DNA of 64,000 bases from Candidatus Latescibacterota bacterium (GTDB lineage Bacteria; Latescibacterota; UBA2968), in NCBI GenBank assembly GCA_965222605.1, contig OZ244960.1, positions 2,272,001 to 2,336,000 on the forward strand, read 5' to 3'. Below are positions 13,186 to 56,527 of this stretch, piece after piece (positions within the stretch are counted from its first letter, which is position 1; each line of letters begins with the position of its first letter). The position numbers and the translations under genes are program-made. The notes below the pieces were generated by a model. The model worked only from the letters and a program-made list of their open reading frames with translations, searched no databases and was not told the DNA's origin.

Positions 13186-15180
13186 CTACCACCCATGCGT
13201 CCAGTGCGGCGTTGACGGAAACCAGATATAATCCACAAGCGAAGAAAGCGCGCAACCCGTCACATATCCAACAACGAGACCAAAGAAAAACGGACGCACG
13301 CGATTGTAAAGCGGGATACCGCCAAACCGCAGAATCATATGCTTGGCCGACCAGGTCAGAAACATACTGAAAGCATAAGTCCTCGATCCCTGGCTAATCT
13401 GAAAAGCCAGCCCCATCGGATGCAGCGGCCACCAGGGCACGCGATTTCGCAAAAACGTAAGCAAACCTGCAAAAAGCACACCCAGAACCCACACAGACGC
13501 CTTGGCCGGATCGAACACAGTCTTATCTGCGCGCACAATAATCGAAACCATGCGATTATAAAGATTTTTATTACCACCCTGAAATCCGCCCAACCCCAAA
13601 TTTTGAGCCGCATTGTCATAGCCGAGATAAATCGTATAGAGCATAGACGCGAAAAAACACGTCGAAAAAGCCAGAAAAATCGTCCAAACAACCCGCTTCC
13701 GTCTCTCTTCAGACGAAAAAAATTTCAGGTGATGGGGCAACGAGGGCCAAACCGGAATGCGGTAATTCCCAAAAAACATATTGGAATTGACAAGACCCAG
13801 ACCGACGACCTCCCTGCGCGTGAACGTCGAATACCCAATCAGACTTTCAATAATTGGTCCGCCCCTATTCGCCACCGGAAACAAATAGGAAAATCCGCTG
13901 GCCGCCGTGTATTTCGCAATGGTAAAATAGGCAATATAGAGAAGCACCACCTGAAGAATCGCAAGGGGCAGCGAAAGCCCCATATACGTGACAAACCCCA
14001 CCACAAAAACCGTAGAGAGTCCCAAACCCACAAGCGCGAAACGGTAAGGGATAAGACCATCGTCTTTTGGAGACCGACAGCCTTCCATCGCCGCCTGAAA
14101 CACCCTGCGCAAATGCCCCCGAGCAATCCAGACTGACCAAAGCGCGAGAAAGACAAAAGCCCCGTGAGATTCCAGCAGCAAAATCTCATAGGCATTTGCC
14201 TGCTGACCCGTATAGCCCACCGTATATCCAACGCGGTTGATAAATCCTTCTTTCAAAATGGCAAAAAGTCGAAACGCCCAAAAAGAAAGAAGAATATCGA
14301 GATTGCACAGATAAGTCAGCCCAATAACGGGCGGCATAATACGCAGCCTCAGAGGAGGAAAATGTTCTGCAAGAATAACATCCTTATCCGCGATACGCAC
14401 CGAATCGTAAATCTCAATATGGGGCAGATTGGGCGCAAAATACGTGACAATATTATACACATAAACGAGCAGCACAACCAGGACGCCCGCCCAGAATATG
14501 CCGTCTTTAAACATCGCGGGAATGCGCTCTTTACCATCAAAACCTTCGGTCAGCACAATGGGAAAAGTCGCCAGAGGAAAAGTCAACTTTTCGGCATCTT
14601 CCCACTGCCTCTGAAAAATAACCGAAACACAAAGCGCGGCCACCACAAGCGCGATAGACAAGCTGAACCACCAGCCAAGCGCGCCTATCCAACTGACCCA
14701 CGGAATGCTCTCGCCCGGCGGCAGACCCTCGTAAAAAGTCGTTATAGACCCCTCCGATGCCTGAGGCAATACCCACCAGGGCATAACATCAAAAAGAAAC
14801 TCCTCCCATCGGTTTTCCGGCGAAGCATAATAAGTCGGAGAACTGATAATACCACCCCAGTAAGTCGCCCATCCCGCAACCGGAATCGTCCCCACAATCC
14901 ACGACATACTGTAAATCAGAACAAGTTCAGAACTGGAAAGCGCAATGCGGGGCCAAAAAAATCTGAGAACGAGATTAACGCCAATCCAGCCCACAAAAGG
15001 CAGCAACACAGACATCGGAAGTTGCGACTTGACCAGCGCGCTATTGACGAGCACCATCCCCGTGTAATTGGTATAAGTATTGAGCAAGACCCCCGTAGCC
15101 ACGCCCAATACGACCGCCCGCACGGTAATAAGGGGACGTTTTTGTCCGGATACATCTCGTAAAGTTTGAGAGTATGCCAT
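13186..15180 (-). CDS. DUF6785/DUF6784-type multi-pass membrane protein (putative transporter)
   Basis: 664 aa; QRQWEDAEKLTFPL, WWPLHPMGL, YNRVRPFFFGLVVG; paralog of 5199-7190. Confidence 0.8.
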   Translation of the reverse strand: MAYSQTLRDVSGQKRPLITVRAVVLGVATGVLLNTYTNYTGMVLVNSALVKSQLPMSVLLPFVGWIGVNLVLRFFWPRIALSSSELVLIYSMSWIVGTIPVAGWATYWGGIISSPTYYASPENRWEEFLFDVMPWWVLPQASEGSITTFYEGLPPGESIPWVSWIGALGWWFSLSIALVVAALCVSVIFQRQWEDAEKLTFPLATFPIVLTEGFDGKERIPAMFKDGIFWAGVLVVLLVYVYNIVTYFAPNLPHIEIYDSVRIADKDVILAEHFPPLRLRIMPPVIGLTYLCNLDILLSFWAFRLFAILKEGFINRVGYTVGYTGQQANAYEILLLESHGAFVFLALWSVWIARGHLRRVFQAAMEGCRSPKDDGLIPYRFALVGLGLSTVFVVGFVTYMGLSLPLAILQVVLLYIAYFTIAKYTAASGFSYLFPVANRGGPIIESLIGYSTFTRREVVGLGLVNSNMFFGNYRIPVWPSLPHHLKFFSSEERRKRVVWTIFLAFSTCFFASMLYTIYLGYDNAAQNLGLGGFQGGNKNLYNRMVSIIVRADKTVFDPAKASVWVLGVLFAGLLTFLRNRVPWWPLHPMGLAFQISQGSRTYAFSMFLTWSAKHMILRFGGIPLYNRVRPFFFGLVVGYVTGCALSSLVDYIWFPSTPHWTHGW

Positions 15181-20013: not shown

Positions 20014-21489
20014 ATGGCTGAGACAGTCAAATTATTGCTCAATGGCGAATGGGTAACATCAGAAGCAACAGAAACAGTACCGGTTTACAACCCATCGGAT
20101 GGAATGGAGATTGCAGCCACACCCTTATGTGATGCCTCAGAGATAGATCGCGTGGTACAATCAGCCGCAGACGCATTTCCCGAATGGGCACAGACACCGG
20201 CAGTTGACCGCGCGCGCGTGATGTTTCGGCTTGTAGCACTCATGGAAACCCATTTCGAAGAACTGGCCCAAATCGTAACCCGCGAAAATGGCAAAACAAT
20301 AGAGGATTCACGGGGTGAAATTCGACGCGGAATCGAAGTCGCAGAATTTGCCTGCGGTGCGCCCGCGCTCTTAATGGGCGACTCGCTGGAAAATATCTCA
20401 CGAGGAATTGATTGCGACACCATCCGGCAACCCCTGGGCGTATCGGTAGGTATTACGCCTTTCAACTTTCCATCTATGGTACCAATGTGGACATTGCCCA
20501 TTGCCCTAATATGTGGCAACACCTATATATTAAAGCCATCGGAGCGCGTACCCTTAAGCGCGATTCGGATTGGCGAATTATTGGCCGAAGCCGGCCTACC
20601 GCCCGGCGTATTCAACATCGCACACGGTGGAAAAGACGCGGTAAATGCCCTCCTCGCCCATCCCGAAGTGAAAACCATTTCATTTGTCGGTTCAACACCC
20701 GTGGCGCGCCATGTCTATGAAACAGCCACGCGCAATGGCAAACGCGTACAATCGGCCGGTGGCGCGAAGAATTACTTAATCGTATTGCCCGACGCCGACC
20801 TGGATTCAACAGTAGCTGCCGTAATGGGATCTGCCTACGGCTGCGCGGGCGAACGGTGCATGGCCGGCAGTGTACTCGTCTGTGCCGAAGGTGCGGGCGA
20901 TCGTTTCCTGGAACCCCTCAGTGAAACCGCACGCGCATTTCGGGTGGGACCAACCGACCGCGATCCCGGTGTGGATATGGGACCGGTAGTGACCAAAACG
21001 CATCTGGACCGCATCCATCAACATATTGAAAATGGGCTGCGAGAAGGCGCAGAACTGATCGTGGATGGACGCGATGTACAGGTCGAAGAAACGCCGCATG
21101 GCTTCTACCTGGGCGCGACAATTTTTGATCAAGTGAACCCCCAGATGTCCATTGCGCGAGAAGAAATTTTTGGACCGGTACTATCGACCATGCACGCGGA
21201 CGACCTGAGCGAAGCCATTGCGCAGTGCAATGCCAGTGGATACGGCAATGCAGCCGTACTATTCACATCGAGTGGCGGAGCCGCGCGCAAGTTTCGCCAC
21301 GAAGTAAACGCCGGCATGGTCGGCATCAATATCGGCGTACCCGCGCCCATGGCATTCTTCCCATTTTCCGGGTGGAACAATTCCTTCTTCGGCGATTTAC
21401 ATGTACAGGGCACCGAAGGCATTTCGTTTTTCACCCGACAAAAAGTAACAATCAGCCGGTGGATTGATACAAAACGACAATTTTTTTAG
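20014..21489 (+). CDS. mmsA: CoA-acylating methylmalonate-semialdehyde dehydrogenase
   Basis: ITPFNFPSMVP, SFVGST, GAKN, AGERCMA, EEIFGPV, FFGDLH. Confidence 0.9.
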   Translation: MAETVKLLLNGEWVTSEATETVPVYNPSDGMEIAATPLCDASEIDRVVQSAADAFPEWAQTPAVDRARVMFRLVALMETHFEELAQIVTRENGKTIEDSRGEIRRGIEVAEFACGAPALLMGDSLENISRGIDCDTIRQPLGVSVGITPFNFPSMVPMWTLPIALICGNTYILKPSERVPLSAIRIGELLAEAGLPPGVFNIAHGGKDAVNALLAHPEVKTISFVGSTPVARHVYETATRNGKRVQSAGGAKNYLIVLPDADLDSTVAAVMGSAYGCAGERCMAGSVLVCAEGAGDRFLEPLSETARAFRVGPTDRDPGVDMGPVVTKTHLDRIHQHIENGLREGAELIVDGRDVQVEETPHGFYLGATIFDQVNPQMSIAREEIFGPVLSTMHADDLSEAIAQCNASGYGNAAVLFTSSGGAARKFRHEVNAGMVGINIGVPAPMAFFPFSGWNNSFFGDLHVQGTEGISFFTRQKVTISRWIDTKRQFF

Positions 21490-21522: not shown

Positions 21523-21981
21523 ATGGCAAGCCGGCACGCAGATTGGTTTAGACAGGGACAACGCGACCTGGAACACGCTCGCAGAGCAACAGAGCATGGC
21601 GATTATGAATGGGCCTGCTTTGCCGCTCAGCAAGGTGCTGAGAAAGCTGTTAAGGCGGTCTTTCAAAAAGTTGGCGGTGTGGCCTGGGGGCATTCTGTTG
21701 CAGCACTATTAGAGGCTTTGCCCGATATTTCGCTGCCTGACTCCGCACTGTTAGATGCGGCAAAAGAGTTGGACAAGCATTATATCCCAGCGCGGTATCC
21801 CAATTCGCATCCTCAGGGCGCGCCATTTGAATCCTATACACAAGGAGAGGCGGATCGTGCTGTTTCAAACGCCAAAAAAATCATCACCTTCTGTTCGGGT
21901 TTTCTATTTGAACCGCCCAAAGACGATCCAACGGATTCGGAAGGCGATGAAAATACTGAAGACCCAGCATCCCGAGATTGA
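21523..21981 (+). CDS. HEPN domain protein
   Basis: WACFAAQQGAEKAVKA, GHSV, LDKHYIPARYP. Confidence 0.88.
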   Translation: MASRHADWFRQGQRDLEHARRATEHGDYEWACFAAQQGAEKAVKAVFQKVGGVAWGHSVAALLEALPDISLPDSALLDAAKELDKHYIPARYPNSHPQGAPFESYTQGEADRAVSNAKKIITFCSGFLFEPPKDDPTDSEGDENTEDPASRD

Positions 21982-22290: not shown

Positions 22291-23628
22291 ATGGCAGATG
22301 ATATCAAAGCTGCGGCAAAAACTGCGCGGCAGGCCGCACTGGCATTGAGTCAGACCACGGAAAAACAGCGCAATGCCGCGCTTGAGGCCATAGCACAGGC
22401 ATTAAGTGCAAATCGGGATCTAATTTTAGACGCCAACAAACGCGACCTAACAGCAGCAGAAAAGATGCTGGCACAGGGGAAAATCACTCCTCCACTGATC
22501 AAACGCCTGAAAGTAGATCGTGAAAAACTGGACAGTGAAATTGTAGTTGGCGTTCGCAGTGTCGCAGCCCAGGAAGACCCCATTGGCAAAACACAGGCCG
22601 CGACCGAATTGGACGAAGGCCTGAACCTCTATCGCGTAACCGTCCCAATCGGCGTAATAGGCGTGGTCTTTGAATCGCGCCCCGACGCACTGGTACAAAT
22701 CGCGACCTTATGTCTAAAATCGGGCAACGCCGTCATGCTCAAAGGTGGCAGCGAAACATTTCATACCAATCGCGCATTGGCCCAGGTAATGGTCGCTGCA
22801 ACTGCTGACCTGGACGGCATCCCCGAAGGATGGATGCACCTTATGGAAGCGCGAGAAGAAGTCGCGGGCATTCTCGAATTACACGACCTCATCGATCTGA
22901 TTATTCCGCGCGGCGGCAATGAACTCGTGCAACATATCATGAACAATACCAAAATCCCCGTCATGGGACATGCCGACGGCATCTGCCATGTGTACGTAGA
23001 TAAAGACGCCGACCTGAAAAAAGCGGTGCGTATCACCATCGATTCCAAGACGCAGTACGCAGCCGTCTGCAACGCCGCCGAAACCCTGCTCGTACACGCC
23101 GGAATCGCCAAAAGCTTCTTCGCCACAGCGATTCAACAACTCACCGACCAGGGCGTTCTGATCCGCGGCGACGCCCGCACCCTGGCCCTCGCCGCCAGCG
23201 CAGATGCCCTGACCCCGGCCAGCGACACCGACTGGTCAACCGAATACCTCGACTACGTCCTATCGGTCAAAGTCGTGGACTCAGTCGAAGAAGCAATCGC
23301 CCACATCAACGAATACGGCAGCCACCACACCGACTCGATTGTAACCGAAGACCAGCAAGCCGCGAAGAGATTTTTGCAAGCCGTGGATTCGGCATCGGTC
23401 ATACACAATGCTTCCACGCGGTTTGCCGATGGATTTCGCTATGGCCTCGGCGCCGAGGTGGGCATCAGCACCAACCGCCTGCACAGCCGCGGTCCCGTAG
23501 GTCTCGAAGGCCTCGTCATCTACAAATATGTAGTGATAGGTGAAGGACATATTGCGGACGATTACATCGGCGAAAATGGAAAAACATTTACACATCGCAA
23601 ACTGGATGCGGTCTGGTGTCCGGAGTAA
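22291..23628 (+). CDS. proA: Gamma-glutamyl phosphate reductase
   Basis: PIGVIGVVFESRP, CNAAETLL, NASTRFADG, GAEVGIST..LHSRGPVGL. Confidence 0.96.
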   Translation: MADDIKAAAKTARQAALALSQTTEKQRNAALEAIAQALSANRDLILDANKRDLTAAEKMLAQGKITPPLIKRLKVDREKLDSEIVVGVRSVAAQEDPIGKTQAATELDEGLNLYRVTVPIGVIGVVFESRPDALVQIATLCLKSGNAVMLKGGSETFHTNRALAQVMVAATADLDGIPEGWMHLMEAREEVAGILELHDLIDLIIPRGGNELVQHIMNNTKIPVMGHADGICHVYVDKDADLKKAVRITIDSKTQYAAVCNAAETLLVHAGIAKSFFATAIQQLTDQGVLIRGDARTLALAASADALTPASDTDWSTEYLDYVLSVKVVDSVEEAIAHINEYGSHHTDSIVTEDQQAAKRFLQAVDSASVIHNASTRFADGFRYGLGAEVGISTNRLHSRGPVGLEGLVIYKYVVIGEGHIADDYIGENGKTFTHRKLDAVWCPE

Positions 23629-31142: not shown

Positions 31143-32404
31143 GACAAATTGATGTACCTTATGGCCGAGGAGCCGTATCTGTCCAAACCGATCCCAAACT
31201 GGCGCACTGGGATGTAATTCGCCCCTCATTTGAACCTGCACTTGAAGACCCCAAACGGCTATTTCACGAAGCCGTGCGCGATCCCATCGGAACAAAACCT
31301 CTCAAAGAAATTGTCACGCCCTCCGACCGCGTGGTAATCGCAACATCCGACGGCACTCGCCCTGTGCCCAACAAACAACTGATCCCCTATCTGCTCGAAG
31401 AATTGCCCGTATCCCCCGATCGCGTAACCGTATTGATCGGCACGGGCACGCACAGGCCAAATACAGAACGCGAAATTATCGAAATGTTTGGCGAAGATCT
31501 GGTTCGCCGCGTTCGCATAGTCAATCACGATGCCTTTAACGAAACGCAAAACGAACAGGTAGGCAAAACTGCGAATGGGACAAAGGTATTTTTGAACCAG
31601 GAATACATCAATGCAGACATACGCATCGCCCTCGGATTTATCGAACCCCACTTCTTTGCGGGTTTTTCAGGCGGACCAAAAGCCGTCGCGCCCGGTGTGG
31701 CGGGTATTGAAACCATTTTCCGACTACATCGCGCCGAACTGATCGCCGACCCAAATAGCACCTGGGGCGTACTTCATGAAAATCCACTACACCGGGAGAT
31801 TCGCGAATGCGTCGCCCTATATCCGCCGGATTTTTTGCTCAACGTGACACTCAATGCGGAAAAGAAAATTTCGGGATATTACGCTGGCGACCTCTCCACA
31901 GCCCATGCAAAGGGATGTGCCGATGTAAAAGCCTCGGCAATGGTACCCGTCGAAACACCCTTCCCGCTGGTCGTAACATCCAATAGCGGCTTTCCCCTGG
32001 ATCAAAATTTGTATCAAACCGTGAAAGGCATCTCAGCCGCAGCGCGTATTGTAAATGACGGCGGAACAATACTGGTCGCGAGCGCGTGCAGCGATGGCGT
32101 CCCCGATCACGGCAATTTTGCGGCATTGATGCGCGAAGGCCACACACCTGCAGATGTAATAGAATCCGTTTATGCACGCGAACCGATCCTCGACCAGTGG
32201 CAGGCGCAAATTCTATCGGGCATTTTAGACCGCGTAAATGTAAAAGTCTATACCGAAATGGACAAAGAAGAAGTCCGGGCCTGCAAACTACAAGTCATTC
32301 CCGACCTCAATAAAGCAATACACGAACACCTGAAGTCTCGGGATACGCACATCGCCCTATTGCCCGATGGCCCACTTGCAATTCCCTACCTGAAGAGCAA
32401 CTGA
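31139..32404 (+). CDS. larA: Nickel-pincer-dependent lactate racemase family (LarA-like)
   Basis: SDGTRPVP, GTGTHR, EPHFFAGFSGGPK, DQNLYQTVKG; ATG 31139 overlaps the upstream stop; substrate not determinable. Confidence 0.85.
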   Translation: MRQIDVPYGRGAVSVQTDPKLAHWDVIRPSFEPALEDPKRLFHEAVRDPIGTKPLKEIVTPSDRVVIATSDGTRPVPNKQLIPYLLEELPVSPDRVTVLIGTGTHRPNTEREIIEMFGEDLVRRVRIVNHDAFNETQNEQVGKTANGTKVFLNQEYINADIRIALGFIEPHFFAGFSGGPKAVAPGVAGIETIFRLHRAELIADPNSTWGVLHENPLHREIRECVALYPPDFLLNVTLNAEKKISGYYAGDLSTAHAKGCADVKASAMVPVETPFPLVVTSNSGFPLDQNLYQTVKGISAAARIVNDGGTILVASACSDGVPDHGNFAALMREGHTPADVIESVYAREPILDQWQAQILSGILDRVNVKVYTEMDKEEVRACKLQVIPDLNKAIHEHLKSRDTHIALLPDGPLAIPYLKSN

Positions 32405-32421
32405 TGGAAAGGACTAAAGCT

Positions 32422-33141
32422 ATGCGTTTATTATTTGTTAGCATTGCAATCCTGATGCTAACCGCAGAAATACAGGCCGGTGAACCGTTTGCCCTCGTCG
32501 AGTTGTTTACCTCACAGGGCTGATCGAGTTGTCCCCCGGCCGACAGGTTGCTCGGCGAGATCGCAGATTCGGAACGGCGCGTATTCGCGCTTTCTTTTCA
32601 TGTGGATTATTGGAATCGACTCGGTTGGAAAGACCCATTTAGCCAGGCTATTTTTTCCGATCGACAGAGACGCTATGCAAGGGTATTAGACGATCACCGC
32701 GTATATACGCCACAGATCATTGTGAATGGTACAGATGGATTTGTAGGATCCCATCGCGGGCGTGCAGAAGAGGGGATTCGAGAAGCACTAACACGAGAAG
32801 CGCGATTCACGATAGAAATAAAAGCACGCATCGACACAAATGCTGTTTTTGTAGATTACGCACTCAATGAGGTACCCAAACAAAGCGTAATCAACATCGC
32901 ACTGGTCGAACGCGATCTGAGCGTTGAAGTCTCGAGGGGGGAAAATGCCGGGCGCCTACTGCAACATCACAACGTGGTGCGAACCTTCATGCATATATCG
33001 CCTGAAAAAAAAGGAAGGATACAAATTGCGGTTCCCAAAGGGGTAAATTTGACGCGGACATCCATTATCGGATATGTACAAAATCGAACAACAATGAAAA
33101 TTTTGGGCGCGGCAGCGTGGGAGCTGAAGGCTGGCGGTTAA
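32422..33141 (+). CDS. DUF1223 thioredoxin-like secreted protein, candidate selenoprotein (UxxC; Sec at TGA 32521-32523)
   Basis: Signal peptide, then VELFTSQG-TGA-SSCPPAD...FHVDYWNRLGWKDPFS...VYTPQ; family consensus is ELFTSQGCSSCPPAD. Confidence 0.85.
32539..32556 (+). promoter_or_regulatory. Putative bacterial SECIS hairpin
   Basis: GCCGA-CAGGTTGC-TCGGC stem-loop starting 15 nt after the in-frame TGA, with G-containing apical part. Confidence 0.5.
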
Positions 33142-35542: not shown

Positions 35543-35853
35543 CACTTGACTTTTTTTTGTTTATTGTTATCTAAAATGCAAGCGATTGTTTAACCGAACT
35601 TTATCAGGAGTGAGACGATGAGGCAGATTTGTTCCACGACCTGCTATGAACGTTAGTCCTTTATTAACAAACGATTGTCGCCTCTTTCTGTGCCTGTATG
35701 CAAACGTTCGCTAAACCTCTTTAGAAGGAAATTTATCGTGAAGAACTTAGCTCATATCGCTTCAACTATCACCGCGGCCGTCTGCGAAGGTATCCTCTCC
35801 GTTCCCACTTGCGAGTTGGTCAAAACCGCCAATCGGAAAGGAAGAAGGACATT

Positions 35854-38800
35854 ATGTCCAGATTTTTCGTTGTACCAATCCTGCTCACGTTTGTCGTTTT
35901 GACGAACGCGGAAGCGCAGCAGACGCCCGTCCTTCTGGTGTCCAACATCGACAAAACCCAGAAGACCGGTCCCGGCTCCCGCCTTGTCGCAGGCGAATCA
36001 ATGGCCGCAATCGGTTTTGGTACCGGCGACGACAATGGCGGCTACGCGCTTACCGGGCTCGATGTCAAATTCCATCAAGACCAGGGGACCGGGGACGAAG
36101 TCCAGCTCGAGCTCTGGTCCTCCGGTTTTCCGGAGAGCAACGGTAATCGACCCTACGCAAAGCTGCTGGTCTTTGACAATCCGGACCGCATCTCCGAAGG
36201 CAACAACACGTTCACACTGCCACAGCCCTTTTATCTAAACGATGGTTGGACTTATTTCATCGTCGGCAGAGCACCCAAATACAAACCCGGCGCCGAGAGC
36301 ACGCAGTGGTGGTTTGCCACCACGGACTCGGACGGACAGGACCGCGTCGATCGCGATTGGTGGATCGGAGACAACACCTTCCGATACGCCGGTTCAGGGG
36401 CCTGGCCGAACCGCGTTACCACGCTCAGCAGAGTCCCGATGATCGCGATCAAGGGCTACGCGCTCGACCGTCTGACCTATAACACCGACGGGAGGATCAA
36501 TGGATACCACGTCGTGGGAGGTAATTCCAGCGGCAACTGGTTGGCGCAGGTTTTCACTACGGGACACGACAACGAAGGCTACGACCTGCACAGCATCGCA
36601 TTGGCGTTCGAAAAAGATTCGGGTCGAGGTATTCCCACTGATGGCGATCGCTTAATCGTGTCTCTATACACGGCTAAAGTGGTCGGCTCTGAACGGCATC
36701 CGGACCGAAAGCTGTTTGACTTTGTGAGTCCCCCCGTGTTCAGAGAAGGCATAGACAACGAGTTCGTCGCGCCGGAAGGATCGACGCTCAATCGGGACAC
36801 GCAATACGTGTTCGTCTTTCGCCGGAGGACTGGCGCGTGGGTATATATCCGGCGAACCAACGACAACGACCAGGAGGGCCAGGACGAATGGTGGATCAGA
36901 AACGAGGTGTACAAATCCACTGACGGCACGACGTGGAACTCGGATACCCGGGTCCCGAAGATGAGGATCTACGGCAAGAGGCGCACGGAACCGATAACAG
37001 AACCAATAACGGAACCGATACCCGAGCGGGTTCTCAATATCGGCGCGGACCGGACGGAGCGCGAGGGGAGCAATTTCGACATCGCGGTGACGTTGTCGGA
37101 AACAAGCGCGCAGGCAGTGTCCGTCTCTTTCCGGGGCACGGGAGGAACCGCCACCGGGAGCGACTATGGTCATGATGGACCGGCGATGGTAACGATCGAG
37201 GCCGGGCAGACGACGGCACAGATCAACTTCGACATCACCGACGACGATGCACCGGAGGGTGAGGAGTTCTTCTTTCTGGAGCTCCACAGTCCGACCAATG
37301 CAGTCATCGGGCGCGCCCAGGCACGGATCACCATACCGGCGAACGACAAACCGGCAGACGACAAACCGACGGACGCCACCAACCCCACACCCGGAACGCC
37401 GCAGGACAACGCAGGCCCAACCTTGCCCGTCTGCAACCGCACCTCGCAGGTGCGCGACGCGATTCTCGCCAGGCTGCCCGGGATCAATGACTGCGCTGCG
37501 GTCACCGCCTATAACCTCCGGAGCATCGATGGCGAGATGGATCTCCACAACAGGGGCATCACTTCCCTCAAGACCGGGGACTTCTCCGGAATGAACCGGC
37601 TGGAATTCCTGAAACTGTCCGGAAACAGACTGAACACCCTCCCGGCCGGCGTCTTCGACGGCCTTTCCGCGGTGCGCGAGTTGTCCCTGCAAACCAACGA
37701 CCTGCGCTCACTGCCGGACGGCGCCTTCAGAGGCCTCACCGGCCCGCTGTGGATCATGCTGACCGGGAACGAATTCACCGCGTTTCCATCGGAAGCACTG
37801 GACGACCTCGGCCCCAACCTCACGGGCCTGTACATGGGGTTCAACGACCTGCGCTCACTACCCGACGACGCCTTCGAAGATTTCAAGCGGCTGAGGGCCA
37901 TCAACCTGGAGAACAACGACCTTATCTCGCTGCCCAACGGCATCTTCGACGACGTCACCACCCTGGAATACCTGTACCTCGGCAGCAACGACCTGACCGC
38001 CCTGCCCAACGGCGTCTTCGACGACCTCCGCCGTCTCCTGAAGTTGTATCTCACGCACAACGACCTGACCGCCCTGCCCAACGGCGTCTTCGACCATCTC
38101 GCCAGTCTCGATGACCTGGACCTGGGCGACAACGACCTGACCGCCCTGCCCAACGGCATCTTCGACGGCCTGAAAGACCTGAAGAGGTTGAACCTGAAAG
38201 GCAACGACCTGGCCGCCCTGCCCGGCGGTGTGTTCGAGGGCCTCTCGAAACTGACCCGGATGTACCTGGACGGCTTCACCCTGATACCCCGGCTGCTGCT
38301 GGCGGGCGGGGGCGTCGCGGTGAGGGTCGCGGAAGGCGTGCCCTTCCCGGTGAACGTGACGCTGTCGGCGAGGAACGCCGATCTGGCAACCACTGCGGCC
38401 GCCATCCCGGCTGGCACCACGACCAGCGAGGCAATCGCCGTTACGCTGCGCGGCGGGAGGTCGGCGCGGGCAACGATCACCGTGGCGTCAGCCGCGTTCC
38501 AAACCGACCCGGACAACTACGAGGGCCTCGACATCCGCACCGGCGCTGGCCTGATCCTCACGCGGGGATCAGGGGGACTGCAAGGGGCGGCGGTTCCGGC
38601 ACCCCCGCCGGACCCCGACGAGGAGACGACTCGGGCGACCATCCGATCGATCGCCTTCACCAGCGACCCGGGGAGGGACAACATCTACGTCTCTGGCAAC
38701 CTGGTCGAGGTGACGGTGACCTTCAGCGAGGAGGTGCGCGTGACCGGAAGGCCGCAACTGGAGCTGGACTTCGACGGCGTGGCCAAAACGGCGACGTACC

Positions 38801-39714
38801 GCGGCGGAACGGCCACAACGGCGATCTTCAGCTACAGGGTGAGAGAGGCCGACACGGACGCCGACGGCATTGCTATCGGCGCGAACAAGCTGACCCTGGA
38901 CCGCGCGAGCATCTGGGACACGGGCGTGCCCGGGAACAGAGCCGACATCACCCACGACGCGGTGCCCGCCGACCCCGGCCACAAGGTGAACCCTCCGGAC
39001 GTGACGGCGCCGGTCTTCGTCAGCGCCGCGACCTCCACGGACGGCACCCGGGTCGTCCTCACCTTCAGCGAAAGGATCACCGTACCGGCGCTGCTGCACT
39101 CGATCGTCAGGCTCGTCGACGTGGGCCTGGCCCGGTTCTTCATAGCGGTGGTCGGCGTGACCGTGGACGGCGACGAGGTGATCCCCTTCACCGCCGGCAT
39201 TTCCTGGAAAAACCTCATCTTCACCTTGCGTGAGCCGGTGACCCGGGGGCAGGAAGTCGCCGTGGCCTACGACAACATCTTCGCCCGCGACGCCGTCGGC
39301 ATCTTCATCGACGAAGCGGGCAACGCTCTGCAGAACTTCCCCTCCCAGGCGGTCGCCAACCGGTCCACGGTGGCCGACTCCGGGGAGGAGGACACCACCC
39401 CGGATCTGACGCTGAGTCCGAAGGAACTTCCGGTCACCGAGGGGGAGAACGCCACCTACACCGTGGCCCTGGGGAGCCAGCCCACGGCGAGCGTGAGCGT
39501 TGCGATCGCGAGCTCTTCGAGCAAGCTGTCGGCGAGTCCGGCACGTCTCGCGTTCACCACGGAAAACTGGAACGACGCCCAGACGGTCACGCTTACCGCG
39601 CGCCAGGACGACGACGACCTGAACTACTGGGTGAGCGTTAGTCATACGGCCAACGGAGGGGGCTACGACTCGACCGCGGCGAATGTGTACGTGGTCATTC
39701 AGGATGACGACTGA
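35854..39714 (+). CDS. Large modular secreted/surface protein: two related beta domains, Calx-beta-like, about 10 LRRs, SwmB-like and Ig-like domains
   Basis: Signal peptide MSRFFVVPILL; (TEPI)x3 linker; TDDDAPEGEEFF Calx-beta motif; VCNRTSQVRDAI...C cap followed by LxxLxLxxNxLxxLPxGVFDxL repeats. Confidence 0.85.
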   Translation: MSRFFVVPILLTFVVLTNAEAQQTPVLLVSNIDKTQKTGPGSRLVAGESMAAIGFGTGDDNGGYALTGLDVKFHQDQGTGDEVQLELWSSGFPESNGNRPYAKLLVFDNPDRISEGNNTFTLPQPFYLNDGWTYFIVGRAPKYKPGAESTQWWFATTDSDGQDRVDRDWWIGDNTFRYAGSGAWPNRVTTLSRVPMIAIKGYALDRLTYNTDGRINGYHVVGGNSSGNWLAQVFTTGHDNEGYDLHSIALAFEKDSGRGIPTDGDRLIVSLYTAKVVGSERHPDRKLFDFVSPPVFREGIDNEFVAPEGSTLNRDTQYVFVFRRRTGAWVYIRRTNDNDQEGQDEWWIRNEVYKSTDGTTWNSDTRVPKMRIYGKRRTEPITEPITEPIPERVLNIGADRTEREGSNFDIAVTLSETSAQAVSVSFRGTGGTATGSDYGHDGPAMVTIEAGQTTAQINFDITDDDAPEGEEFFFLELHSPTNAVIGRAQARITIPANDKPADDKPTDATNPTPGTPQDNAGPTLPVCNRTSQVRDAILARLPGINDCAAVTAYNLRSIDGEMDLHNRGITSLKTGDFSGMNRLEFLKLSGNRLNTLPAGVFDGLSAVRELSLQTNDLRSLPDGAFRGLTGPLWIMLTGNEFTAFPSEALDDLGPNLTGLYMGFNDLRSLPDDAFEDFKRLRAINLENNDLISLPNGIFDDVTTLEYLYLGSNDLTALPNGVFDDLRRLLKLYLTHNDLTALPNGVFDHLASLDDLDLGDNDLTALPNGIFDGLKDLKRLNLKGNDLAALPGGVFEGLSKLTRMYLDGFTLIPRLLLAGGGVAVRVAEGVPFPVNVTLSARNADLATTAAAIPAGTTTSEAIAVTLRGGRSARATITVASAAFQTDPDNYEGLDIRTGAGLILTRGSGGLQGAAVPAPPPDPDEETTRATIRSIAFTSDPGRDNIYVSGNLVEVTVTFSEEVRVTGRPQLELDFDGVAKTATYRGGTATTAIFSYRVREADTDADGIAIGANKLTLDRASIWDTGVPGNRADITHDAVPADPGHKVNPPDVTAPVFVSAATSTDGTRVVLTFSERITVPALLHSIVRLVDVGLARFFIAVVGVTVDGDEVIPFTAGISWKNLIFTLREPVTRGQEVAVAYDNIFARDAVGIFIDEAGNALQNFPSQAVANRSTVADSGEEDTTPDLTLSPKELPVTEGENATYTVALGSQPTASVSVAIASSSSKLSASPARLAFTTENWNDAQTVTLTARQDDDDLNYWVSVSHTANGGGYDSTAANVYVVIQDDD
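37986..38166 (+). repeat. 72-bp-period LRR coding repeats with near-identical 37-bp cores
   Basis: CAACGACCTGACCGCCCTGCCCAACGGCGTCTTCGAC at 37986 and 38058 (identical) and 38130 (1 mismatch). Confidence 0.9.
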
Positions 39715-42356: not shown

Positions 42357-44063
42357 CCCGAAAAATTCATAAAAAAGGTAGTTTCCCTATTCAAGTTATT
42401 GTATTATATTAGGTTATACGCATAACCATTGAACAATGAACTTGGGAGAAACTACCGTGAGCACACAAGATAATCATTGCAAGGTTCCTTTGGCAAGCAT
42501 TTTCGGCAAACGTCTCAACCTCGCCTTTGATGGGGGTATTCTCACCAGCGATAGCGGAGCCTTATTGCTTCGAGAAGTGGAGGCCAAAACGGGTATTTTA
42601 TCACGTTTGAGTCGCGCGATTAAAGACCATCGGCATCAAAGTTATGTGGCGCATAGCACGGCAGAGTTGATCAAACAGCGCGTGTTTCAAATTGCCTGTG
42701 GGTATGAAGATGCCAATGATTGCAATGCCTTACGCAGCGATCCCGGCTTCAAGGTTGCCTGTGATCGCTTGCCCATAAGTGGTGAGAACTTGGCCAGTCA
42801 ACCCACGATGAGTCGGTTTGAGAATCAGATGAGCAGAAGCGATTTGTATCGCGTTGCTCGTGCCTTTGTCGATTGTTTTATTGCTTCGTATAAAAAGCCG
42901 CCTTCGTCGATCATCTTAGATATTGATGATACGCAGGATAGGGTTTATGGGACGCAGCAGTTGTCCTTATTCAATGGGTATTTGGGTGCCTACTCCTACC
43001 AGCCTTTGCATATTTATGAAGGGCAATCGGGCAAGCTAATCACGACGATTTTACGTCCGGGTGTGCGTCCTGATGGCAAACAGATTGTCACCATTCTCAA
43101 GCGGTTAGTCGCTTATATTCGTCAGGCTTGGCCAAAGGTGGCACTCTTTTTGCGAGGCGATGCCCACTTCTCAAGTCCAGAAGTCCAGGACTTTTGTGCG
43201 ACAAAGGACCTCTTTTTTATCCTCGGACAAAGTGCCAATACCCGACTCTTAGCCCTTTCAAAGCCCCTGATGGATCAGACCAAAAGCCTTTATGCACAAA
43301 CCGGCAAGCCCGTGCGACTTTTTACCTCATTTTATTACCAAGCCCAGACTTGGGCCTGTGCCAGACGCATCTTATGCAAAGCTGAAATCACCACCCGAGG
43401 CCAAAACACACGCTTTGTCGTGACCAACCTTGAAAGTTCAAGGGCCTCCTTTATCTACCAAAATATCTATTGTGCGCGCGGACAGATGGAAAACTTCATT
43501 AAAAATCACAAAACCTTTCTCCACTCAGACCGCACGTCCTGTCACGCTTTTGGAGCCAATCAGTTCCGCCTCTTCCTCCATTCGGCTGCCTATGTCTTGT
43601 TGCACACCTTAGCGCACATCGGATTACAAGGCACAACGTGGATAAACGCACAGGTCAATACCCTCCAAAATCGTTTCCTTAAAGTCGCCGGACGCGTCTG
43701 TGAGTTGAAAACAAAGATCACCTTCCATCTGCCTATGTCATTTCCATTGCCACACCTTTTTGATAAAATCCTGTGCAATCTGGCAAAGGCGGTGCCATAA
43801 CCCATCAACGGGGAAGGAATAGGGGTCTGTCCCATCACTTGCTGACTTTACAAATACACGGACTTATCCACAGACAGGACTGGCAAGGGACCGGTCTGTA
43901 CTTTTGACACTGGCAGAGCCTGTCAGGGGACGATTTGGGCTGCTTGAACTCTATGAAGACGCCTATGACGGCAGACAAGATAGAAAGCACCCTCATTTTG
44001 ATGCTTGGAACCGATGCCGCCTGACAAACAACCCCAACCATTACAGTTCATGAATTAGTCGGG
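42357..44063 (+). mobile_element. IS1380-family insertion sequence (1707 bp)
   Basis: IRL CCCGAAAAATTCATAAA, IRR (revcomp) CCCGACTAATTCATGAA; 4-bp target duplication CTAA at 42353-42356 and 44064-44067. Confidence 0.93.
42436..43800 (+). CDS. IS1380 family DDE transposase
   Basis: FDGGILTSDSG, GYEDAND, LASQPTMSRFEN, ILDID, LRGDAHF, YCARGQMENFIK. Confidence 0.95.
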   Translation: MNLGETTVSTQDNHCKVPLASIFGKRLNLAFDGGILTSDSGALLLREVEAKTGILSRLSRAIKDHRHQSYVAHSTAELIKQRVFQIACGYEDANDCNALRSDPGFKVACDRLPISGENLASQPTMSRFENQMSRSDLYRVARAFVDCFIASYKKPPSSIILDIDDTQDRVYGTQQLSLFNGYLGAYSYQPLHIYEGQSGKLITTILRPGVRPDGKQIVTILKRLVAYIRQAWPKVALFLRGDAHFSSPEVQDFCATKDLFFILGQSANTRLLALSKPLMDQTKSLYAQTGKPVRLFTSFYYQAQTWACARRILCKAEITTRGQNTRFVVTNLESSRASFIYQNIYCARGQMENFIKNHKTFLHSDRTSCHAFGANQFRLFLHSAAYVLLHTLAHIGLQGTTWINAQVNTLQNRFLKVAGRVCELKTKITFHLPMSFPLPHLFDKILCNLAKAVP

Positions 44064-47164: not shown

Positions 47165-48447
47165 CTAACAGCCCGTGAAGCCCACATGCTTTAGCTGTGG
47201 GAGTGTAAGTGGCTCTCCCGTTATAGCTTTAGCGTATAACAAGGCTGGAAAACCACCTTGATGACCGAAAATATATTGAGTATATTTCTCAACATGAAAC
47301 TGACACTTCAAATACAACTGTTACCGGACGCCAATACAGGCGAGAAGCTAAAAGCTACTGTTGAGCGGTTCAACGAAGCTGCCAATTGGCTTGCTCCGAA
47401 GGCTTATGAGCGCAAGCTGGCGAATAAGTTTGCACTACAAAAGCTATACTACAAGGACTTGCGTAGCCAATTCGGATTGTCCGCACAAATGACTATTCGC
47501 TGTATTGCTCAAGTCGTTGAAGCATACAAGCGGGACAAAAAGGGGCAGCCGTCGTTCCGTCGCCATGCTGCTATGCCCTACGATCAGCGACTGTATAGCT
47601 TTAAGGGCATAGACAAAGTATCTCTGCTTACCCTTGAAGGCCGCGTGTTTGTGCCAATGTTGATGGGCAACTATCAGCGTGAGCAGTTCGGCTATGCCAA
47701 AGGACAGGCAGACCTTGTGTTGCGTAAAGACGGAAAGTGGTTCTTGCTTGTCTCTGTAAATGTCCCTGATGGCACACCAATACCCACGACTGACTTTATT
47801 GGCGTTGATCTCGGTACAACAAACCTTGCAGTGACAGACGATGGTGAAACATTCTCCGGCGACACTGTTGAAAATGTCCGACAGAAGATGCACGATCTGA
47901 AAAAGTCGCTCCAGCAGAAAGCGTCTGCCCTTGTCAAGCAAGGCAAGAGACCCAAGAATGTCCGTAGAAAACTCTCTGTTATCTCTGGCAGAGAGAGTAG
48001 GTTTCGCAGAAATACCAACCATATCATTTCCAAACGCATCGTTGAGAAGGCTAAAGACACTGGCAAGGCCATTGCCCTTGAAGACTTGAAAGGCATACGC
48101 AAGAGCCAGAAACGGTTTCGCAAGCCTCAGCGTGCTAAAATGTCTGGGTGGTCTTTCTTCCAACTCCGCATATTCGTCGAATACAAGGCAAAGCGTGCTG
48201 GTATCCACATAGAACCTGTGGATCCGAAATACACCAGCCAAACTTGTGCCGAGTGTGGACATTGTGAGAAAGGCAATAGACATACCCAGGCATCCTTCCT
48301 GTGCAAACAGTGTGGTCATAAAGACCATGCTGACCGCAACGCCGCTCGGAATATCCGAGCAAGGGCTTTGTGTCAACAAGCCTAAAGTTGCCGAGTGCAT
48401 TTATGCACGAGCGACAAGCCCAACTGCTTCAGCGTTGGGTAGTTGAC
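47165..48447 (+). mobile_element. IS200/IS605-family element carrying tnpB only (IS1341-like)
   Basis: LE hairpin GAAG-CCCACA...TGTGGG (47177-47201) preceded by TCAC at 47161-47164; RE hairpin CAAG-CCCAAC...GTTGGG followed by TAGTTGAC ending at 48447. Confidence 0.82.
47294..48385 (+). CDS. tnpB: RNA-guided endonuclease TnpB
   Basis: RuvC residues GVDLG, ALEDL, ADRNAA; zinc finger TSQTCAECG...CKQCG. Confidence 0.93.
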   Translation: MKLTLQIQLLPDANTGEKLKATVERFNEAANWLAPKAYERKLANKFALQKLYYKDLRSQFGLSAQMTIRCIAQVVEAYKRDKKGQPSFRRHAAMPYDQRLYSFKGIDKVSLLTLEGRVFVPMLMGNYQREQFGYAKGQADLVLRKDGKWFLLVSVNVPDGTPIPTTDFIGVDLGTTNLAVTDDGETFSGDTVENVRQKMHDLKKSLQQKASALVKQGKRPKNVRRKLSVISGRESRFRRNTNHIISKRIVEKAKDTGKAIALEDLKGIRKSQKRFRKPQRAKMSGWSFFQLRIFVEYKAKRAGIHIEPVDPKYTSQTCAECGHCEKGNRHTQASFLCKQCGHKDHADRNAARNIRARALCQQA

Positions 48448-53983: not shown

Positions 53984-55351
53984 ATGGGAAAAGAATTTGA
54001 CATCACCCCTGTTAATGTACCAAAAGTCGATACAAAATATCGCCGCATTGTGACACCTGTGCCCCATCCAGACTCGGTGGCAACGCTAAAAACGTTACAC
54101 AGGGTGGAACCCATCTCCATGCGCGGACAACCGCCCATTGTATGGGACCGCGCAGAAGATTGTCAGGTTTACGACAAATACGGCAATATGTGGCTCGACT
54201 GGAGCTCGGGCGTACTCGTTACCAATGCCGGGCACGGCATGCCCGAAGTCCGACAAGCAATCATAGATCAAGTAAACAGCGGGCTATTGCACAATTACGT
54301 ATTTCCAAGCGAAGAGCGGGCGCAAGTCGTCGAGTTGCTGGCGGACCTGGCTCCCGATGGATTGGACAAAGTATTTCTGCTAACCACCGGATCTGAAAGC
54401 ACTGAAAACGCCTTGAAACTGGCGCGAACGCACGGCATTACAACAGGCGGAAAAAAGAAAATCGGCTTTGTGGGATTTGAACGCGGATTCCACGGGCGCA
54501 CAATGGGCGCACAGCAAGTCGGCGGAATGCCCGGGCAAAAAGACTGGATCGGAAACGAAGACCCCGCCATCGTACAAGTACCCTTTCCCGATGGATATTG
54601 GACGGAAAATGTGGATTTCGACTTTTTCTGCTCTACAATCAAAGACAAAGGACTAAATGCAGACGATGTATGCGGTGTAATGCTCGAAACATATCAGGGC
54701 GTAGGACCTGATTTCGCACCCGTGCCTTATGTACAGGCACTATCTGAATGGTGCAAAGCACACGGTGCCCTGTTGATCTTTGATGAAGTACAGGCGGGAT
54801 TTGGTCGCACCGGTAAAATGTGGGGGTTTGAGCATTACGGCGTAATCCCCGACCTGATCTGCTTTGGCAAAGGCGTGAGCAGCTCCTTGCCGCTATCGGG
54901 CGTAATCGGCAGAACCGAGGTCATGGACTTATATCCCCCCGGATCAATGACAAGCACCCACACGGGCAACCCCGTCTGTTGTGCAGCGGCGCTGGCCAGC
55001 CTAAAAAAAATAGTAGATGACGATCTCACCGGCAATGCAGCGCGACTCGAACCAGTATTAGCGAACGGAATCAAAAAAATTCAAGCCGCGCATCCCGATG
55101 TAGTCGGACACATAACCTGCAAAGGACTTGTAGGCGGCGTACAAATGGTAAAAGCGAATCAAAAAGAACCCGACCCGGACCTGGCGCACGAAATTGTACT
55201 GCGCTGTTTCCACAAAGGATTGCTATTCTTTGCCCCCGTGGGCGCGTGGGGACAAACCGTAAAAATTTCTCCGCCATTGACCATTGAACAAGACGCGCTT
55301 GAAGATGGCCTGCAAGTGCTTGCTGAAGTTGTGGGTGATATACAGGGGTAA
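53984..55351 (+). CDS. Class III PLP-dependent aminotransferase (GabT/ArgD-like)
   Basis: GSESTENALK, FHGRT, FDEVQAGFGRTG, FGKG. Confidence 0.92.
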   Translation: MGKEFDITPVNVPKVDTKYRRIVTPVPHPDSVATLKTLHRVEPISMRGQPPIVWDRAEDCQVYDKYGNMWLDWSSGVLVTNAGHGMPEVRQAIIDQVNSGLLHNYVFPSEERAQVVELLADLAPDGLDKVFLLTTGSESTENALKLARTHGITTGGKKKIGFVGFERGFHGRTMGAQQVGGMPGQKDWIGNEDPAIVQVPFPDGYWTENVDFDFFCSTIKDKGLNADDVCGVMLETYQGVGPDFAPVPYVQALSEWCKAHGALLIFDEVQAGFGRTGKMWGFEHYGVIPDLICFGKGVSSSLPLSGVIGRTEVMDLYPPGSMTSTHTGNPVCCAAALASLKKIVDDDLTGNAARLEPVLANGIKKIQAAHPDVVGHITCKGLVGGVQMVKANQKEPDPDLAHEIVLRCFHKGLLFFAPVGAWGQTVKISPPLTIEQDALEDGLQVLAEVVGDIQG

Positions 55352-55358
55352 AAAGTAT

Positions 55359-56525
55359 ATGGCAAACGAAAAACGCGGACGACTGCGCGAAATAGCGGCA
55401 TTATTCTTTAAACTCGGCGTAATTGGCTTTGGTGGTCCTGCAGCGCATATCGCCTTAATGGAAGACGAAGTAGTTGAAAAGCGCGCGTGGTTATCGCGCG
55501 AACGATTTTTAGATCTCGTCGGTGTAACCAGTATTATCCCCGGTCCAAACTCGACGGAAATGGCGATACACCTGGGATTCTTGCGCGGAGGCTGGCCCGG
55601 CCTATTGCTGGCTGGCGGATGTTTTATATTCCCTGCCGTTACATTGACAACAATCCTCGCCTGGGCCTACATGACTTACGGCGCCATCCCAGAGGTTGCC
55701 GATTTGCTCTACGGCATCAAACCAGCGGTACTCGCCGTCATTCTGGGTGCGCTGTGGCGATTGGGACAAAAAGCCGTAAAAGGGTGGCGATTGAGCTTTC
55801 TCGGCCTGGCTGTAATGCTCGTGTCCCTCACCCAATTTAGCGGCGTCCTCGCACTGATTGGCGGCGGAATCATCGGGATGTTCTGGCTGCGCATGACGCG
55901 ACCGAGAGACCGCGAACACATGGCTGTAATTGCGCCTATAGCAGGTACTGGATTGACAATGCTGGCAAGTCAAGGCGCAGTATCCGCAGGACCAACCCTG
56001 TGGGCACTGGGTCTGTTCTTTCTAAAAATTGGCGCGATCCTCTACGGCAGCGGATACTTACTCATTGCATTTCTCGAAGAAGAACTCGTGCTCAGATATG
56101 CCTGGCTAACGCAGGAGCAATTGCTGGAAGCCATTGCCATCGGCCAGTTTACACCTGGACCCGTATTATCGACCGCGGCCTTCATCGGTTATCTGGTCAC
56201 CGGTGGCAAACTATCGGGCGCACTCGTCGCTGCTGGCGCGATCTTCTTGCCCTCCTTTGTATTTGTCGCTGCTCTGAATCCCCTCTTGCCCCGGCTGCGA
56301 GAATCTCAATGGGTATCGTCTTTTCTCGACGCCGTAAACGTCTGTGCTGTGGGATTGATGGCCGCTGTGACAATAGAACTGGGCTATCTAACCCTGGATT
56401 CAGTGCCCAAAATGGCAATCGCAGGCATAGCGTCCATTCTGATATTGTGGCGCGGTGTCGGCGCAGTATGGCTGGTCGTTGGCGGAGCCGTTGTGGGCTG
56501 GCTGCTCCTCGCTGCGGGCTTTTAG
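55359..56525 (+). CDS. chrA: Chromate efflux transporter
   Basis: GFGGPAAHIA, PGPNSTE, GSGY, TPGPV repeated halves. Confidence 0.9.
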   Translation: MANEKRGRLREIAALFFKLGVIGFGGPAAHIALMEDEVVEKRAWLSRERFLDLVGVTSIIPGPNSTEMAIHLGFLRGGWPGLLLAGGCFIFPAVTLTTILAWAYMTYGAIPEVADLLYGIKPAVLAVILGALWRLGQKAVKGWRLSFLGLAVMLVSLTQFSGVLALIGGGIIGMFWLRMTRPRDREHMAVIAPIAGTGLTMLASQGAVSAGPTLWALGLFFLKIGAILYGSGYLLIAFLEEELVLRYAWLTQEQLLEAIAIGQFTPGPVLSTAAFIGYLVTGGKLSGALVAAGAIFLPSFVFVAALNPLLPRLRESQWVSSFLDAVNVCAVGLMAAVTIELGYLTLDSVPKMAIAGIASILILWRGVGAVWLVVGGAVVGWLLLAAGF

Positions 56526-56527
56526 GG

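Follow-up and report, generated by a model that had tools for sequence, protein, structure and literature searches.

The DNA analysed here, referred to below as the window, is a stretch of 64,000 nucleotides (nt) from a Candidatus Latescibacterota genome. Its forward strand carries, at positions 32422–33141, a full-length gene of the DUF1223 family comprising 239 codons, from an ATG at 32422 to a TAA stop at 33139–33141. A TGA at codon 34 (32521–32523) is the single in-frame interruption, and the rest of the frame is open to the TAA. Around this codon the translation reads ...ALVELFTSQG-U-SSCPPADRLLGE..., where U is the selenocysteine (Sec) that we propose for the first position of a UxxC motif. 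The TGA aligns with an invariant cysteine of the family, and both the sequence and the alignment of relatives point to the TGT at 32530–32532 (Cys37) as the codon of its resolving partner. We consider it highly probable that 32422–33141 encodes a full-length, exported DUF1223 protein, with a thioredoxin-like domain and a β-sandwich, in which UGA34 is decoded as Sec and a U-S-S-C motif stands at the start of helix α1.

A Shine-Dalgarno-like sequence, GGAAAGGA (32405–32412, forward strand), lies 9 nt 5′ of the ATG and directly 3′ of the TGA stop (32402–32404) of an upstream LarA-like gene. It may serve as a ribosome-binding site, and its bases are identical at L028, the syntenic locus of another Latescibacterota chromosome. 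Codons 1–19 (32422–32478, forward strand; MRLLFVSIAILMLTAEIQA) have the composition of an export signal, with M-R, a hydrophobic core and IQA|G; the top 10-residue mean on the Kyte–Doolittle scale is 3.03. An earlier note on this DNA had read the 33 codons upstream of the TGA as an intact signal peptide with a ribosome-binding site. Both GGAAAGGA and the hydrophobic leader are present, and the term signal peptide, for the window as for its relatives, describes residue composition alone.

Programs that call open reading frames (ORFs) pick the TTG at 32548–32550 (forward strand) as the start, which gives a product of 197 amino acids (aa) in the mechanical ORF list. In the database, the closest protein is P0002 (97% identity, 197 aa, a cluster of 27 members), which begins at that residue as well; close relatives have therefore been cut short likewise. 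The earlier note's statement that callers truncate the gene at 32548 thus applies to the ORF list and to P0002. The relatives that follow P0002 show about 52% identity, and every one of them is a full-length form with cysteine at the TGA position (Cys form). L012, one of 46 TGA-bearing DUF1223 loci described below which, with the window, make up our 47 Sec forms, is also represented in its own public record (P0123) by a 197-aa fragment. If the real product were this shorter protein, as the ORF callers and these public records have it, the upstream 33 codons would be non-coding or a separate small ORF. However, according to the structural model presented below, such a product would lose strand β1, the UxxC site, the first turns of helix α1 (residues 37–50) and the leader with its export signal. 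Moreover, the conserved block V26–A40, partly upstream of the TGA, is kept in frame in 47/47 Sec forms. We therefore regard a genuine 197-aa product as extremely unlikely.

The DUF1223 profile (PF06764) matches residues 25–220 with an E value of 3.4e-59 and a score of 200.7 bits, against a gathering cut-off of 30.7, and profile positions 1–202 of 202 are covered; the domain therefore spans the TGA. This is the sole Pfam match of the window protein. No NCBIfam model matches at its cut-off, a weak match to Omp28 (30.1 bits) lying under the cut-off of 150. In a 30-row alignment, cysteine occupies the TGA column and the column at +3 in 28/28 full-length relatives. The TGA is the first Cys of ELFTS[EQ]G-C-x-x-C-P-P-A-[DE], the best conserved block of DUF1223, and V26–A40 is at least 90% conserved in the DUF1223 alignment. 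The invariant columns beyond CxxC (HVDYW, RQ, YTPQ, GEN, H, and VVR) are all found in the window protein. The Pfam match and the relatives' alignment agree with the earlier note in placing the TGA at 32521 on the first Cys of ELFTSQG-C-SSCPPAD, and the downstream frame, described there as intact, is indeed free of further stops before the TAA.

An AlphaFold2 model of the protein (mean predicted local distance difference test, pLDDT, 91.3; predicted template modelling score, pTM, 0.87) shows two domains. The thioredoxin-like domain, delimited by the secondary structure of the model, covers residues 24–122 (32491–32787, forward strand) and includes the invariant Y95-T96-P97, presumably the cis-Pro loop of the thioredoxin fold. 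The C-terminal β-sandwich, residues 131–234 (32812–33123, forward strand), holds the invariant G173-E174-N175 and H182. Residues 24–30 form a strand, U34 and C37 lie in the turn at the start of helix 37–50, and the leader is modelled as a low-confidence helix (residues 2–13). The top match in the PDB, 2AXO (sequence E 5.9e-28; fold E 1e-16, TM-score 0.67–0.72), is Atu2684 (AGR_C_4864) of Agrobacterium tumefaciens. Like the window protein, it belongs to DUF1223 and has ELFTSQGC-x-SCPPAD and an N-terminal leader, but it carries Cys (CASC) at the TGA position; its function is likewise unknown. The second structural match is HBP35 of Porphyromonas gingivalis (5Y1A; E 1.2e-11, TMq 0.63), which is also exported and also combines a thioredoxin-like with a β-rich domain. 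Unlike the window protein, it is of another family (12% identity) and has no Sec. Thioredoxin activity and haemin binding are known for HBP35. The β-sandwich also resembles an Omp28 domain (2R2C; E 1.3e-4). PMC3091736 assigns DUF1223 and 2AXO to the thioredoxin-like clan and fold.

We scanned one degenerate DNA pattern, F-x-S-[EQ]-G-TGA-x-x-C-P-x-A-[DE], across 185,579 species-representative genomes. It gave 47 loci, where by our own arithmetic, assuming uniform base composition, about four chance matches are expected. In 46 of these, a lower bound given the single strict pattern, DUF1223 is encoded both before and after the TGA; the remaining one (L023) is a chance match. When the window protein was compared by tblastn with each of the 46 loci, a single alignment ran across residue 34. 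According to their record titles, 18 are from Planctomycetota, 17 from Acidobacteriota (Pyrinomonadaceae and Thermoanaerobaculia), four from Myxococcota, two from Latescibacterota, one from Poribacteria, one from "Rickettsiales", and three are unclassified. A search for homologs with TGA at the same codon, proposed in the earlier note, thus finds them in 46 other species of at least five phyla. That note had also considered that close relatives might all have TGC or TGT; the 46 loci, including the syntenic L028, carry TGA instead. An in-frame start codon and an upstream hydrophobic segment (10-residue Kyte–Doolittle maximum of at least 2.0) are present in 47/47 Sec forms, and a lipobox-like L-x-[GAS]-C in 11/47. 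A Pfam scan of the ORFs flanking the Sec forms (90 of the 161 selected) revealed neither a selenium gene nor a neighbour conserved among them. The locus titled "uncultured Rickettsiales bacterium" (L001, CAZITQ010000034.1) groups with Myxococcota Sec forms on the tree described below, and its 3-bp hairpin is among the poorest; the taxonomy of this bin may be doubtful.

Two other Latescibacterota genomes allow the reading frame to be compared. L028 lies on a 6.18-Mb Candidatus Latescibacterota chromosome (OZ253501.1), syntenic with the window (PckA neighbour). Its gene is 95.3% identical in DNA to that of the window, shares the TGA, and shows no indels and no further stops. Downstream of the TGA, the ratio of nonsynonymous to synonymous differences (pN/pS) is 0.25 (11 nonsynonymous, 14 synonymous; binomial p 0.0006). 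Codons 20–33, from the leader to the TGA, show no nonsynonymous change. In leader codons 1–19, pN/pS is about 1, with hydrophobic-for-hydrophobic replacements. In the second genome, L021, the protein is 51% identical overall and the leader, GEPFAVLELFTSQG, the TGA, and the hairpin are all kept, the mature N-terminus GEPFA[LV][VL]ELFTSQG being preserved. The unchanged codons 20–33 of L028 and the conservation in L021 therefore indicate that the stretch before the TGA is protein-coding and shares the frame of the remainder of the gene. These comparisons bear on the idea that the gene is a pseudogene, one Latescibacterota lineage having inherited a nonsense mutation that leaves no functional product. 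The ratio of about 1 in the leader would fit this, as would the fact that the window and L028 share the weakest hairpin, and the lineage is documented by two close genomes and one protein cluster only. Against it stand the low pN/pS downstream of the TGA, the unchanged codons before it, the lack of indels or additional stops, and the retention of TGA, leader and hairpin by L021 within the same phylum. Since 46 species from at least five phyla likewise have TGA at this codon within intact frames, we judge a pseudogene very unlikely.

When the 63 nt that follow each TGA were folded, a shared hairpin appeared; its stems were counted from 17–19 nt after the U of UGA. Among the 47 Sec forms, the uninterrupted stem measures 8 bp in three, 7 bp in 28, 6 bp in 10, 5 bp in two (the window and L028), 4 bp in one, and 3 bp in three. 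It thus reaches at least 6 bp in 41/47, and GU is found in the loop in 44/47. Typical examples are GCCGAGG-AGUU-CCUCGGC, GCCGAUC-AGUU-GAUCGGC, GCCGACG-AGUU-CGUCGGC, GCUGAGA-AGUU-UCUCAGC, and GGCUGAC-CGUGC-GUUAGCC, and pairing is preserved across at least a dozen distinct stem sequences. Since the two arms also encode A-[DE] and [LIV]-G, compensatory changes alter the amino acid (L, I, or V) as well. The minimum free energy (MFE) of the hairpin in five relatives ranges from −8.2 to −14.3 kcal/mol, and hairpins of other family members that fold at −10.1 to −14.3 kcal/mol have z-scores of −3.2 to −4.9, with 0/200 shuffles as good.

Covariation supports this structure. For a named structure of seven pairs evaluated over all 47 rows, 76.7% of cells are paired, versus 65.2% in shuffled data, and the covariation score is 0.267 versus 0.104; in both cases 0/500 shuffles are as high. 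Pair 30–37 is GC in 18 rows, CG in seven, and UA in five; pair 31–36 is CG in 18, GC in 17, and AU in two. Every pairing measure falls when the 3′ partner is slid by one to three columns. In a subset of 26 rows with a single register, pairs 24–31, 25–30, and 21–34 show the same double changes; the 96% pairing of this subset is by construction, because its rows were hand-picked.

As controls we used Cys forms of DUF1223, namely 12 plasmid genes and three tandem Cys paralogues (L003, L033, and L034). Fourteen of them were scored for the hairpin, L056 being excluded for its CxxS motif. A stem of at least 6 bp was found in 1/14 and GU in the loop in 4/14. The median local folding z-score is −1.54 for the Sec forms (48 rows, including the chance locus L023) versus −0.13 in nine Cys forms (Mann–Whitney p 0.039). 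The hairpin mentioned in the earlier note is thus a feature of the family, marked by compensatory changes and GU loops and largely missing from Cys forms.

This family hairpin has the general properties of the selenocysteine insertion sequence (SECIS) elements of bacteria (bSECIS), with a stem of 6–8 bp, an MFE of −10 to −14 kcal/mol, and an AGUU, GGUU, or CGUGC loop that begins about 22–25 nt after the UGA and has G in its first or second position, then U or G. It differs from them in being very compact and stereotyped, in that its arms double as A-[DE]/[LIV]-G codons, and in that no lower stem was detected. The bSECIS model given in the Fig. 2 legend of PMC13188914 has an apical loop of 3–9 nt, an upper stem of 4–16 bp, a UGA-to-loop distance of 16–37 nt, an MFE of −7.5 kcal/mol or lower, and a G as one of the first two loop bases. 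The G rule is satisfied by most relatives, with their AGUU, GGUC, and CGUGC loops.

The window has its own SECIS-like hairpin at 32539–32556 (forward strand), with arms GCCGA (32539–32543) and UCGGC (32552–32556) around the loop CAGGUUGC (32544–32551); in DNA form, GCCGA and TCGGC enclose CAGGTTGC. The centroid fold has an additional C32544–G32550 pair, with C32551 bulged and a loop AGGUU. The hairpin occupies the position homologous to the family hairpin. Its geometry (5-bp stem, 8-nt loop or 5-nt centroid loop, spacing of 20–21 nt) is within the bSECIS model. In the mechanism that we propose, a SelB-type factor with Sec-tRNA(Sec) would bind this hairpin, which has GU in its loop and starts 15 nt past the UGA codon, as the ribosome nears the UGA at 32521, and would supply Sec there in place of termination. 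The N-terminal leader would then route the protein over the cytoplasmic membrane. Outside the cytoplasm, the selenol/thiol pair could act as a thiol-disulfide (selenylsulfide) oxidoreductase. The scheme presupposes SelB and tRNA-Sec in the genome from which the window comes.

Several observations weigh against this interpretation. Neither selA, selB, selD, nor tRNA-Sec was found in the 64-kb window or the 46 loci (758 kb in total), which were searched by tblastn with Escherichia coli SelA, SelB, and SelD and by ARAGORN. The supporting genomes are all metagenome-assembled (46/46, with 0 isolates). The hairpin of the window is the weakest among the members that bear one (5 bp, 8-nt loop, −7.8 kcal/mol). 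Folded over 24 nt it has a z-score of −0.64, with 46/200 shuffles as good, so that on its own it does not exceed chance; the 66-nt fold of the site gives +0.95, and the local z-score is +0.15 versus the median of −1.54 in the 48-row Sec set that includes L023. Being unremarkable alone, it acquires significance only through comparison with other genomes. It passes the bSECIS stability limit marginally (−7.8 vs −7.5 kcal/mol), no better than shuffles. Its minimum-energy loop CAGGUUGC begins with C and A and fails the G rule, whereas the centroid loop AGGUU fits. The GCCGA/TCGGC hairpin that the earlier note saw at SECIS distance is present and properly spaced, but to take it for a good SECIS would be an overstatement, as it fits the published model only marginally. 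Across the family, RNAalifold found no consensus pairs in the ungapped 47-row alignment, probably because about one-third of the rows carry the hairpin one register off. No Rfam SECIS family was matched, even at E values up to 10, in a gathering scan of the window and an E-value scan of 32480–32620. That interval gave just two Rfam matches, each with 12.3 bits, to an SAH riboswitch and to DGCR5, which were taken as chance.

A covariance model (R1) was built from the 26 single-register Sec forms, which are from other phyla and include no Latescibacterota. At 32521–32562 it scores 45.7 bits (E about 4e-12, rough calibration), a score that blends coding conservation with structure and derives from hand-picked training rows, which also counts against giving it full weight; no other site of the window exceeds 14.3 bits. 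R1 recovers 20/20 held-out Sec forms at their TGA, with 9.4–47.5 bits. The best score on Cys forms is 21.8 bits, and R1 does not match 6/12 plasmid Cys loci at E values up to 10.

Two further explanations of the open frame concern decoding. If TGA were a sense codon throughout this genome, as in an alternative genetic code, the interruption would need no special signal; nothing beyond the open frame itself speaks for this. At least six Pfam-supported genes of the window end in TGA, namely the LarA-like gene (32402–32404), the PckA and PhyH genes, two that are ceramidase-like, and one for an M16 peptidase. When every TGA of the window was treated as a sense codon, no second split gene emerged, no other genes merged, and none was meaningfully extended. 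As TGA ends ordinary genes of the window, the code is not reassigned, and we consider the probability of an alternative code practically negligible. The UGA could also be read through locally with another amino acid, as Cys by a Cys-charged tRNA-Sec-like tRNA or as Trp or Cys by near-cognate suppression, the hairpin merely stimulating read-through. Systems that recode Sec to Cys do occur in some bacteria, and the weak hairpin of the window is compatible with this, as is the negative result of the Sec-machinery search in the window and the 46 loci. Yet the position, stem, and GU loop of the hairpin fit the bSECIS model of PMC13188914 (Fig. 2 legend), which holds in 41–44 of the 47 members. The TGA falls exactly on the redox Cys, a classical Sec/Cys pair, and it persists in at least five phyla despite TGC and TGT being one base away. 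Read-through with an amino acid other than Sec thus appears quite unlikely to us, and decoding of UGA34 as Sec remains our preferred explanation.

The relationship between Sec and Cys forms was analysed on a FastTree phylogeny of 178 rows (47 Sec, 131 Cys), with the Cys/Sec column masked and P0001, P0002, L051, L056, and L058 left out. The Sec label changes seven times on this tree, whose Cys sample is skewed to relatives of the window protein; at least four of the changes are forced by well-supported (starred) branches, and the mean for shuffled labels is 41.5. Cys forms are interleaved with Sec forms, L021 (Sec) being sister to P0003 (Cys) with a support of 99. The three tandem Cys paralogues from Acidobacteriota form a clade nested within a Sec clade. 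Each of these lies directly downstream of a Sec form (L003:10729–11598, forward; L033:746–1543, reverse; L034:8463–9338, reverse). They carry CFNC, CPGC, and CAAC, and two of the hosts are titled Pyrinomonadaceae while L034 is titled Acidobacteriota. In the plasmid form L056, from Bosea sp. AS-1, CSVS replaces CxxC, the second Cys having become Ser.

Among the other plasmid Cys forms, L048 (Paraburkholderia) adjoins a gene for a protein-disulfide reductase with a DsbD domain, L053 (Sphingomonas) one for a CcdA family protein, and L058 (Microvirga) one for a PCu(A)C copper chaperone. Two of the 12 plasmid Cys forms thus have neighbours that hint, if only faintly, at a periplasmic reducing route with CcdA/DsbD-type donors. 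To our knowledge, the function of DUF1223 is unknown, even though a structure has been solved since 2005, and our literature search found no biochemical data on any DUF1223 protein. Sec in place of the first Cys of CxxC would mark this residue as the catalytic nucleophile of an extracytoplasmic redox enzyme and would offer a functional handle on DUF1223.

The nearest described systems are predicted UxxC selenoproteins, presumed to be exported redox proteins and classed as periplasmic thiol-disulfide oxidoreductases, of the families PF13098 (thiol:disulfide interchange protein), PF01323 (DsbA-like), and NF041057 (DsbG-like) (PMC13188914, Table 1). They have in common with the window protein a thioredoxin fold, Sec at the first position of UxxC, Cys homologues, and an in-frame SECIS just after the UGA. 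The window protein differs from them in matching only PF06764 in Pfam and in its additional C-terminal β-sandwich. DUF1223/PF06764 is not among the 119 prokaryotic selenoprotein families listed with domain identifiers in that table of a 2026 review (PMC13188914). No literature pairing DUF1223 with selenoproteins was found: the DUF1223 papers did not deal with selenium and the PF06764 papers were irrelevant. A term search of the deep-Sep and BSepDB (species list) supplements gave no DUF1223 selenoprotein, and among the 120 relatives listed for the L012 protein, no name refers to a selenoprotein. This search covered sources other than the GOS, Sargasso Sea, and Peng 2016 supplements, where DUF1223 might figure under another name. 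In the portions of the literature that our search returned, no statement on a selenoprotein trait in Latescibacteria was found, and the available part of PMC5029168 holds nothing on Planctomycetes or Acidobacteria. The impression in the earlier note that a Sec-containing DUF1223 is at least poorly described is in keeping with this: no such report was found in the literature and catalogues searched.

Sec-containing DUF1223 proteins are therefore probably a real, new selenoprotein family of a familiar kind, with a thioredoxin-fold UxxC motif and an in-frame bacterial SECIS, that has not yet been catalogued. We give even chances to a fuller picture, in which an uncatalogued family of exported or lipid-anchored selenoproteins is known so far only from uncultured representatives of at least five phyla. 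The family would have its own mini-SECIS, with a 7-bp stem starting 18 nt from the U of UGA, an AGUU loop, and arms made of A-[DE]/[LIV]-G codons in which pairing dictates the amino acid. Sec and Cys would have been exchanged repeatedly, with tandem Sec and Cys copies in Pyrinomonadaceae, and the Sec forms may be the selenol end of a CcdA/DsbD-fed periplasmic reducing pathway. Such a family would add a widespread member to the prokaryotic selenoproteome, several of the phyla involved being scarcely covered by selenoprotein surveys. It would also be a case of systematic misannotation, with P0002 and the L012 record stored as 197-aa fragments without the active site. The compact hairpin is easily recognised and could be used as a search model for more genes.

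The rest of the window contains other genes of interest. Two mobile-element-like genes lie downstream of the DUF1223 gene, both on the forward strand: a DDE transposase at 42436–43800 (DDE_Tnp_1_4, E 4e-150) and a TnpB/Cas12f-like protein at 47258–48385 (OrfB_IS605 and TNB domain). Between them lies a gene for a surface protein of 974 aa that has FlgD_ig, PPC, and fn3 domains. Large leucine-rich-repeat and tetratricopeptide-repeat (TPR) proteins are encoded at 35809–39714 (forward), 57495–58808 (reverse), and 58823–60883 (reverse); among them are one Calx-beta domain and one Peptidase_C39-like domain, and several neighbours end in FlgD_ig-type domains.

On the reverse strand, 5199–7190 and 13186–15180 encode paralogous large proteins, each composed of DUF6785 and DUF6784. 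This pair sits among heparinase-like, sulfatase, ceramidase-like, and PhyH genes, and this gene content suggests a region for the utilisation of polysaccharides or glycolipids. A HEPN-domain protein (21523–21981, forward) is encoded between a full-length aldehyde dehydrogenase (20014–21489) and an Aldedh-like ORF (22291–23628, forward). The latter matches only positions 28–293 of the 461 of the profile and may be divergent or truncated. Finally, the longest ORFs of a chromate transporter (55284–56525, forward) and of a DUF58/VWA protein (56000–57418, forward) share about 525 nt, read in different frames. As the DUF58 Pfam match begins at residue 222, the true start of the DUF58/VWA gene probably lies much later.

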